IMG/VR virus record: IMGVR_UViG_3300028486_000080
Location: 80,199 to 144,198 of that record
Length of the DNA: 64,000 nt
Source of the DNA: a virus
Taxonomy: Duplodnaviria > Heunggongvirae > Uroviricota > Caudoviricetes
Strand: one strand, 5' to 3'
Part shown: positions 52,330 through 53,142 of the stretch, in pieces
Position numbering within the stretch: the first letter of the stretch is position 1
Layout of the letters: each line of letters opens with the position of its first letter
Made by a program: the position numbers and the translations under genes
Notes under the pieces: model-generated
Database searches by the model: none
Seen by the model: the letters and a program-made list of their open reading frames with translations, nothing else
Told to the model about the DNA's origin: nothing

Positions 52330-53142
52330 TTAGCGACAAGTCACGACGCGTCTAAGTAGTGCGTTCAACGGAGCTTCCGGGAACTCACGATCAGGCGCGT
52401 CGTTCTCCAGGCTCTTCAACCCGGCGAGCATGTGCGTAACCCATTCTTCGATGAGTGGGTAAGGCGCAACCTGTGCACCTTCGAATGCTTGATGCTTGCG
52501 GTTCTTCCAGTCTTCAATCTCAGCAAGCACCGGAGCACCAATGCCTTCCACCTCGCGCAGCAATTGATTGAAACCTACAGGTGGAATTTTCCACTCGTGT
52601 TGTACCATCCACAGGGCAGCGAGGATCGGACGAAGAACGTAGACGTACTTCTTCACCGAAATGTTCTTGCCGAAATTACCTTCACCGAACTCGCGATTGG
52701 TCAGCGCGACGTAGTGCTTCATCAGACGAAAGGCTGAGTAGTGCTTCTCTATAGCCTCACGTAGTCCGATGATGAAAATGTTGCTGCCATCCACATAGCG
52801 AGTGTCGCAGAACAACCACTCGATCAGCGATGGGTTGGAAGCTTTTGCCAGCGTCATCGTCTTGAAAATGTCCCACCCAGAGAGATCGTATGGAAAGTCC
52901 ATCTTCTCCAACGTAGGAGGCGGAGCCGACATCTGGAGGTAACGCTGCGCAGGAGCCGTGAAGATGAAGCGCACATCATAGTCGCTGTCAGGCGAAGCTA
53001 AGCCCCACGCCCGACTGCCGCTTTCAACAGCATAGAGCACGCTCACACCGTTCTCGGTCTCTATATCAGTCAGCATCAACTTGATGCGGGCTTCTGGCGT
53101 CAACATAGTTTGGTCTCCCGACCAGTTTGATTTGGAGAGCAC
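52330..53142 (-). CDS. Pol-beta superfamily nucleotidyltransferase (COG3541-like)
   Basis: [26 protein letters not shown] = GS-x9-13-[DE]h[DE]h nucleotidyltransferase motif; 270 aa; flanked on both sides by tRNA genes. Confidence 0.55.
   Translation of the reverse strand: [270 protein letters not shown]

Follow-up and report, generated by a model that had tools for sequence, protein, structure and literature searches.

This report concerns a gene found in a 64,000-nucleotide (nt) stretch of DNA, hereafter the window (positions 80,199 to 144,198 of IMG/VR virus record IMGVR_UViG_3300028486_000080), from an uncultured phage with a genome of ~165 kb. The gene lies between two tRNA-Arg genes and encodes, as judged from its sequence, a clear member of the RlaP family and no new kind of enzyme; the proper annotation of this "nucleotidyltransferase" between tRNAs is an RlaP-family RNA-repair nucleotidyltransferase (NTase). 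Probably (roughly two chances in three), the protein acts as a template-independent RNA 3'-nucleotidyltransferase which refills trimmed tRNAs before ligation and is co-expressed with the phage tRNAs. This reading is based on the full-length RlaP match, the invariant active site, the confident structural model and purifying selection, as well as on a homologue (P0098) located in an RtcB-RlaP-RtcA operon and the activity of the Pseudomonas enzymes PfRlaP and PaRlaP on cleaved tRNA. It is also based on the ligase and the peptidyl-tRNA hydrolase neighbouring the RlaP genes of phages BcepSaruman and Gurke, on the conserved tRNA-Arg order and spacers around the gene, and on the occurrence of same-strand tRNAs within 1 kb of RlaP in 9/74 viral loci from divergent lineages.

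Reading frame, active site and predicted fold

The original prediction was of a 270-amino-acid (aa) NTase encoded by the open reading frame (ORF) 52330-53142. This minus-strand ORF with a GTG start is indeed present and contains the NTase core, but its start had to be revised. The GTG at 53142 was rejected because it falls 10 nt inside tRNA-Arg(CCG) and because the ATG at 53106 is preceded by a Shine-Dalgarno-like sequence and agrees with public gene calls and with homologues. The public gene callers give a 258-aa protein (P0001) that is 100% identical to the product read from ATG 53106, and the N-termini of homologues (MLTPEA...) coincide with this position. Judged by these signals, the true start is ATG 53106 and the protein consists of 258 aa.

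Compared with the relatives that are 72% and 52% identical, the ratio of nonsynonymous to synonymous substitutions (dN/dS) is 0.12-0.28, and the synonymous sites are near saturation. The ORF is thus a real gene, and purifying selection acts on it. Homologues at E<=1e-5 accounted for 7727 of the 8000 scored candidates. With megablast the region matched none of 50,697 phage records; a close cultured relative is thus absent from that collection.

The 258-aa protein matches the Pfam family RlaP at profile positions 4-248 of 249 (E=5.6e-55, 187.2 bits vs the cutoff of 23) as well as PHROG 14344, a nucleotidyltransferase (E=3e-49), and PF10127 is carried by all 120 homologues among the matches listed. 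The NTP_transf_2, CCA-adding and CD-NTase profiles, which had been named at the outset as the ones to search, gave no significant match: RlaP is the only significant family in Pfam, and at E<=1 it is accompanied solely by the sub-threshold NTP_transf_2 (14.5 bits vs the cutoff of 21). Residues E28, G30, S31, R32, D42, D44 and D74 (258-aa numbering) are invariant in an alignment of 80 sequences and also in one of 15 sequences, and many further residues besides the GS, the DxD and the third D are invariant across the 80 homologues. The metal-binding carboxylates looked for on alignment are present as D42, D44 and D74. With G30-S31 and these three aspartates as the predicted catalytic residues, the active site is intact.

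The AlphaFold2 model of the protein (pLDDT 95.9) is formed by an N-terminal alpha/beta NTase domain and a C-terminal helical domain, with strands at residues 22-29, 43-50 and 65-79 and helices at 110-256, including the terminal helix 244-256. Compared by description, this layout agrees with the crystal structure of PfRlaP, in which an N-terminal NTase domain is followed by a C-terminal helical domain whose last helix packs back (PMC12776372). A sequence search of PDB chains, in a copy lacking the PfRlaP structure, gave nothing meaningful.

The Pseudomonas homologue P0098, which is ~36% identical to the window protein over 96% of the length, belongs to an RtcR / Ro60-RtcB-RlaP-RtcA operon, that is, to the context of the characterised PfRlaP and PaRlaP. 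The window protein shares with these enzymes the full-length Pfam family and the catalytic aspartates, and its modelled layout of an NTase and a helical part resembles the one described for PfRlaP. In contrast to their genes, which lie between rtcB and rtcA, the window gene is phage-borne and is placed between tRNA-Arg genes with no adjoining ligase. RlaPs are also found in other phages (BcepSaruman gp374, SL2 gp092 and Gurke GURKE_02900), being 32-38% identical to the window protein over 79-97% of the length. The BcepSaruman gene is 0.7 kb from an RnlA-like RNA ligase and that of Brevundimonas phage Gurke follows a peptidyl-tRNA hydrolase, whereas no ligase and no tRNA occurs within 6 kb of the gene of phiKZ-like SL2. 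The family as listed in PMC12776372 also includes T4 NrdC.11, which is too distant for BLAST, since no T4-like (Escherichia) record appeared among the 78 tblastn hits of the window protein.

Surrounding tRNA genes

The original prediction placed tRNA-Arg(TCT) 5 nt downstream of the gene and tRNA-Arg(CCG) directly upstream of it. Both tRNAs were recovered at these places by ARAGORN and Rfam, the second one 26 nt from the corrected start (Table 1). The order tRNA-Arg(ACG)–tRNA-Arg(CCG)–RlaP–tRNA-Arg(TCT) is kept in the relatives L006 (RlaP 72% identical), L002 and L004 (both 52%). The spacers remain short, with 26, 14 and 28 nt before the start codon and 5, 8 and 7 nt after the stop codon in the window, L002 and L006, respectively. 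No sigma-70-like promoter and no terminator-like site was found between RlaP and its flanking tRNAs; a terminator-like call covers the T-arm and acceptor stem of tRNA-Arg(TCT) together with the following T-run. This arrangement fits co-transcription of RlaP with the tRNAs and release of its mRNA by tRNA-processing enzymes. The conserved order could also be plain inheritance, because these relatives are broadly syntenic anyway.

The spacer between tRNA-Arg(ACG) and tRNA-Arg(CCG) is strongly structured and ends, at about 53215-53250, in a 10-bp GC-rich hairpin and the sequence TTTCTTT directly before tRNA-Arg(CCG). In L002 and L006 a hairpin with a T-run is located at the matching place; its stem sequences differ, and a ...GATGCGATAGGTC-like motif is shared. 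The alignment of this leader comprises three sequences and is shallow and poorly aligned, with covariation not established. It is possible that the hairpin spacer upstream of the RlaP unit is a terminator, an attenuator or a processing element. On the opposite side, the RlaP/tRNA-Arg(TCT) unit is met by three small convergent plus-strand ORFs (97, 90 and 64 aa) at 51484-52246. Two have counterparts in L002 and L006 (about 90 and 97-98 aa), and no family match was found for the three.

For a wider view of the relation to tRNA genes, RlaP relatives from 74 independent loci of IMG/VR were considered. A tRNA is located within 1 kb of RlaP in 9 of these loci and within 3 kb in 17; the other 57 viral RlaPs have none so close. 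RlaP lies beside or inside same-strand tRNA arrays in about 9 divergent lineages (31-58% mutual identity). An arginine-specific link was rejected as a general rule because the tRNAs flanking RlaP in other lineages have many specificities (Lys, Met, Gln, Gly and Thr as well as Arg). In large phages RlaP is often part of the accessory region for translation and tRNAs; this position alone is no proof of a functional tie.

Proposed role in RNA repair and alternative readings

The name RlaP was coined by Burroughs and Aravind (2016) for genes sharing operons with RNA ligases, and the prediction quoted from that work is that RlaP refills nucleotides lost from nuclease-damaged RNA or tRNA ahead of ligation (as cited in PMC7824862 and PMC12776372). 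Among the repair NTases of jumbo phages, according to Iyer et al. (2021), RlaP ranks first in prevalence and CCA-adding enzymes second, and the distribution of RlaP follows that of RNA ligases (PMC7824862). The phage RlaPs were proposed to counter RNase-based defence of the host (PMC7824862, PMC12776372). The genome considered here, at ~165 kb (its longest contig measures 165,361 bp), is under the usual jumbo-phage size.

The first biochemistry of RlaP, carried out with the P. fluorescens and P. aeruginosa enzymes, is described in a bioRxiv preprint of December 2025 by Carruthers, Fatma and Huang (PMC12776372). PfRlaP and PaRlaP add 1-2 nucleoside monophosphates (NMPs) to an RNA 3'-OH, prefer Mn2+, have little specificity for the nucleoside triphosphate (NTP) and also accept dATP. 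They use neither 3'-phosphate ends nor DNA nor proteins, and E. coli proteins stay unlabelled. On a mimic of cleaved tRNA the acceptor end is a less favoured substrate than the 3' end of the 5' half, and both enzymes partly restore aminoacylation of a tRNA short of one anticodon-loop nucleotide. In total RNA of E. coli both label full-length tRNAs, and PfRlaP labels rRNA-sized species as well. Three strictly conserved aspartates are needed for catalysis in this family of >10,000 sequences (all from PMC12776372).

From these properties the following course of events may be proposed. A host anticodon nuclease of the RloC type would cut a tRNA and trim one or two nucleotides off the 5' fragment, the end of which would first have to be healed to a 3'-OH. 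RlaP, with Mn2+ or Mg2+ bound by D42, D44 and D74, would then add one or two NMPs to this 3'-OH, and an RNA ligase, either the host's or one encoded in the remaining phage genome, would reseal a full-length, chargeable tRNA, so that phage translation could continue. RlaP itself would be transcribed within a tRNA precursor, in which tRNA-Arg(CCG), 26 nt, RlaP, 5 nt and tRNA-Arg(TCT) follow each other. Nucleases that process tRNAs would generate the ends of its mRNA, and the enzyme and the replacement tRNAs would arise together.

Two proteins of the window are candidates for the end-healing step. One of them is a calcineurin-like phosphoesterase encoded just downstream of the tRNA array. In some jumbo phages, healing of RNA ends has been attributed to calcineurin-like phosphatases (PMC7824862), and by analogy this protein could be a 3'-phosphatase making the 3'-OH for RlaP. 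The other is a cyclic-phosphate-processing receiver (cREC) protein, whose gene lies between tRNA-Gly(GCC) and tRNA-Asp(GTC), separated from these by about 1 and 13 nt. Proteins of this type are predicted to heal RNA 2',3'-cyclic-phosphate ends in large phages and are equally tied to NAD+/cyclic ADP-ribose processing (PMC7824862). Possibly the cREC protein is an RNA end-healing partner of RlaP. The link goes no further than that, because of this second association and because the gene abuts NAD+ genes.

Several observations weigh against the tRNA-repair reading. Neither an RNA ligase nor RtcB nor a polynucleotide kinase was found in the window (Pfam and PHROGs, about 50 ORFs), by PDB sequence searches of three unassigned ORFs, or in the flanks (~8 kb leftward and ~6 kb rightward). 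Since no ligase was found in these ~78 kb of the 165-kb genome, the ligase context that gave the family its name is not demonstrated here. The cREC protein may equally belong to the adjoining NAD+ salvage module. To our knowledge, an in vivo role has been shown for no RlaP. The available biochemistry comes from one preprint, is in vitro only and concerns proteins ~36% identical to the one in the window; the preprint itself points out that the 3'-OH product of RlaP mismatches the 3'-phosphate requirement of RtcB (PMC12776372). Finally, RlaP is not closer to tRNAs than its neighbours are. In the 74 viral loci a tRNA lies within 1 kb of RlaP in 9/74 cases (12%) and within 1 kb of the remaining ORFs (>=150 aa) in 76/678 cases (11%; Fisher p=0.85, the control being conservative and local). 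A tie between RlaP and tRNAs would rest mainly on the biochemistry of the family.

The same comparison is an argument for the alternative that survives best, namely that RlaP stays in the tRNA island by chance, with no functional coupling, and that its true target is perhaps rRNA or mRNA. Its place would then only reflect a tendency of the tRNA regions of phages to gather accessory and mobile genes. Such an explanation is unlikely but of appreciable weight. It agrees with the many viral loci devoid of nearby tRNAs, with the phiKZ-type phages, which have no tRNA within 6 kb of RlaP, and with the labelling of rRNA-sized species by PfRlaP (PMC12776372). Moreover, the island holds unrelated genes (NAMPT, NMNAT-Nudix, T5orf172-HTH, HNH and MazG-like), some of which are placed equally tightly between tRNAs. 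Against it stand the sandwich of RlaP between two tRNA-Arg genes with spacers of 5-28 nt, which is kept down to 52% protein identity, the recurrence of same-strand embedding in the divergent lineages, and the preference of the family for cleaved tRNA as substrate in vitro (PMC12776372). The co-occurrence with tRNA arrays, a check named in the original prediction, is seen in the order kept in relatives and in the recurring arrays, and not in the rate of tRNA proximity.

Quite improbable is a CCA-adding or CCA-repair enzyme rebuilding the 3' acceptor ends of phage or host tRNAs. The repair function originally supposed, addition of CCA or A, holds as far as RNA/tRNA repair is concerned and fails with respect to the CCA. 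It is true that both kinds of enzyme have a Pol-beta NTase core, use an RNA 3'-OH and serve tRNA repair in some large phages, and that the gene in question is flanked by tRNAs. However, CCA-adding enzymes belong to another family, with no Pfam match to the window protein, which is smaller and at 258 aa lacks their extra domains. The CCA is encoded in 28 of the 29 tRNA genes found by ARAGORN, and CCA addition is therefore not needed for their maturation; the sole exception is Leu(TAA), which abuts Leu(TAG). Nothing points to ordered synthesis of C-C-A. The prevalence of CCA-adding enzymes in jumbo phages (PMC7824862) would speak for such an activity, and the labelling of full-length tRNAs by PfRlaP and PaRlaP makes some action at the acceptor end conceivable. 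Nevertheless, the characterised RlaPs discriminate little among NTPs and stop after 1-2 nucleotides, and the acceptor-end strand of the nicked-tRNA mimic was a poorer substrate than the break in the anticodon loop (PMC12776372).

A nucleotide-signal or oligonucleotide synthase, or a decoy of this kind, directed against signalling-based defence of the host (CD-NTase/OAS type or kin of Hailong HalB) is very unlikely. HalB, together with ANT(4') and ANT(3'')(9), is among the nearest solved structures, at 11-15% identity and a TM-score of about 0.44. The acceptors of these enzymes are different: HalB carries out free oligo-dA synthesis, the aminoglycoside nucleotidyltransferases (ANTs) modify antibiotics, and RlaP acts on RNA 3' ends. 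HalB was not found at E<=1 by phmmer against PDB sequences, so that the likeness exists at the level of fold only, and a CdnG chain appeared only at a Foldseek E of 0.04 with a TM-score of 0.26. There was no hit in PADLOC-DB at E<=0.01 and no CD-NTase or SMODS hit in Pfam, and a HalA-like membrane effector was not identified beside the RlaP gene. An NTase of small molecules or proteins (aminoglycoside ANT-like, DrrA/GlnE-like AMPylase or MntA-like antitoxin) is scarcely credible: the identities to all of them lie in the range 9-15%, MntA reaches 14.7 bits vs the cutoff of 60, no HEPN toxin partner is nearby, antibiotic resistance has no rationale in the tRNA island of a lytic phage, and PfRlaP and PaRlaP labelled neither E. 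coli proteins nor DNA (PMC12776372). The CD-NTase, HalB, ANT and AMPylase readings are unsupported because remote fold likeness is typical of the Pol-beta superfamily and sequence support is missing. The signal-synthase and aminoglycoside-NTase proposals of the original prediction were dropped accordingly, the former for want of a PADLOC-DB or Pfam match and the latter for want of membership in a sequence profile.

The find is mildly new only in respect of the deeply conserved tRNA-Arg / RlaP / tRNA-Arg unit, with no ligase partner visible so far in the part of the genome covered; otherwise it is routine annotation, sound and largely ordinary. Phage copies of RlaP are believed to act against host anticodon nucleases, which cleave tRNAs and trim them, and the closely spaced cluster of this clade (5-28 nt) is a natural system in which the action of RlaP on tRNAs could be tested during infection. 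It is also suited to the study of mRNA excision from a tRNA precursor. As a long shot, RlaP may work without a phage ligase, be coupled to the tRNA set and be made from a precursor RNA of three tRNA-Arg isoacceptors. It would then serve the upkeep of one tRNA class, e.g. against a colicin-D-like anticodon nuclease specific for arginine tRNAs, or the tailoring of tRNA 3' ends, and RlaP, the cREC protein and the calcineurin-like phosphoesterase would form a repair route, ligase-independent or dependent on a host ligase, that is not yet described. A HalB-like oligonucleotide synthase serving as a counter-defence decoy is a still more remote variant.

The tRNA island and other genes of the window

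RlaP is located at the upstream end of a tRNA island, the tRNAs and tmRNA of which are all on the minus strand (Table 1).

Table 1. Positions of the RlaP gene, its surroundings and other features in the window (numbered from its first nucleotide)
Feature	Position	Strand	Remarks
RlaP-family (PF10127) nucleotidyltransferase gene	52330..53106	-	258 aa, ATG start
Shine-Dalgarno-like GGGAGA	53114..53119	-	Spacer of 7 nt to ATG 53106; read from sequence
tRNA-Arg(TCT)	52248..52324	-	CCA encoded; ARAGORN, Rfam 65.8 bits; 5 nt past RlaP stop; T-rich tail follows
tRNA-Arg(CCG)	53133..53209	-	CCA encoded; ARAGORN, Rfam tRNA 64.3 bits; 3' end 26 nt upstream of RlaP ATG
Structured spacer, tRNA-Arg(ACG) to tRNA-Arg(CCG)	53210..53365	-	Minimum free energy -62.4 kcal/mol, z=-4.6
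tRNA-Arg(ACG)	53366..53442	-	ARAGORN and Rfam; first gene of the conserved block of three tRNA-Arg and RlaP
tRNA island	37923..53442	all -	29 ARAGORN tRNAs, 2 further Rfam tRNAs and permuted tmRNA; accessory ORFs interspersed
cREC protein	39741..40067	-	108 aa; PF20274 E=2.7e-16, 60.4 bits vs cutoff 27
Calcineurin-like phosphoesterase	36324..36896	-	190 aa; Pfam Metallophos E=5.1e-6; PHROG 547 phosphoesterase E=4.2e-48; just downstream of tRNA array
NAMPT (NAPRTase + NAMPT_N)	40416-41786	-	Inside tRNA island
NMNAT(CTP_transf_like)-Nudix fusion	42106-43125	-	Inside tRNA island
T5orf172/MUG113 domain fused to helix-turn-helix (HTH)	45706-46215	-	Homing-endonuclease-like
Small HNH protein	48175-48477	-	Homing-endonuclease-like; faint/weak precomputed Pfam hits
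MazG-like pyrophosphatase-like protein	33508-34173	-	Nucleotide/RNA-related accessory gene
MazG-like pyrophosphatase-like protein	49456-49920	-	Nucleotide/RNA-related accessory gene
Permuted two-piece alphaproteobacterial-type tmRNA	50171-50551	-	ARAGORN; Rfam RF01849 104.5 bits, RF04321 108.5 bits
PhoH	34271-34945	+	Flanks tRNA island
DarG-like macrodomain protein	35002-35508	-	168 aa; PADLOC PDLC02990 E=2.2e-56; Pfam Macro E=2.7e-20
Ion_trans/Ion_trans_2 cation-channel-like protein	10998-11969	+	E=1.6e-30; unusual phage cargo
TadE/Tad + VWA-domain protein	5020-6369	-	Unusual phage cargo

The permuted transfer-messenger RNA (tmRNA) is of alphaproteobacterial type and points to a host from this class, so that the phage probably infects an alphaproteobacterium. 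Its tag, ANDNSPMVEDFRIAA, is identical in L001 and L006. The homing-endonuclease-like genes fit the idea of the island as a hotspot of mobile and accessory genes. The NAD+ salvage pair of NAMPT and NMNAT-Nudix, which is kept in the relative L002, resembles phage NAD+-reconstitution pathways countering NAD+-depleting defences. The DarG-like macrodomain protein is a candidate for phage counter-defence against DNA ADP-ribosylation of the DarT type. The window also encodes terminase, a primase/helicase-like protein, ribonucleotide reductase, ThyX, dNMP kinase, an amidase endolysin and a tail module of the phiJL001-gp84/DUF2460 type.

Some tRNA calls of the island are odd or discordant (45032-45339, 46603-46675, 38362-38448, 44886-44973 and 38086-38161). 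The Rfam tRNAs at 45267-45339 and 46603-46675 were missed by ARAGORN; conversely, Val(TAC) at 45032-45107 and a 91-nt Ile(TAT) at 45121-45211, with its anticodon at position 30, were called by ARAGORN and are missing from the gathering-level list of Rfam. At 87 and 88 nt, the two tRNA-Lys genes exceed the usual length. By coordinate arithmetic, the two Logan contigs of SRR14117729 spanning the window (82,115 bp and 39,695 bp) both end at ~45470-45495, between tRNA-Ala and tRNA-Ser. The assembly may have broken here at a repeat, or because the island is heterogeneous in the population.

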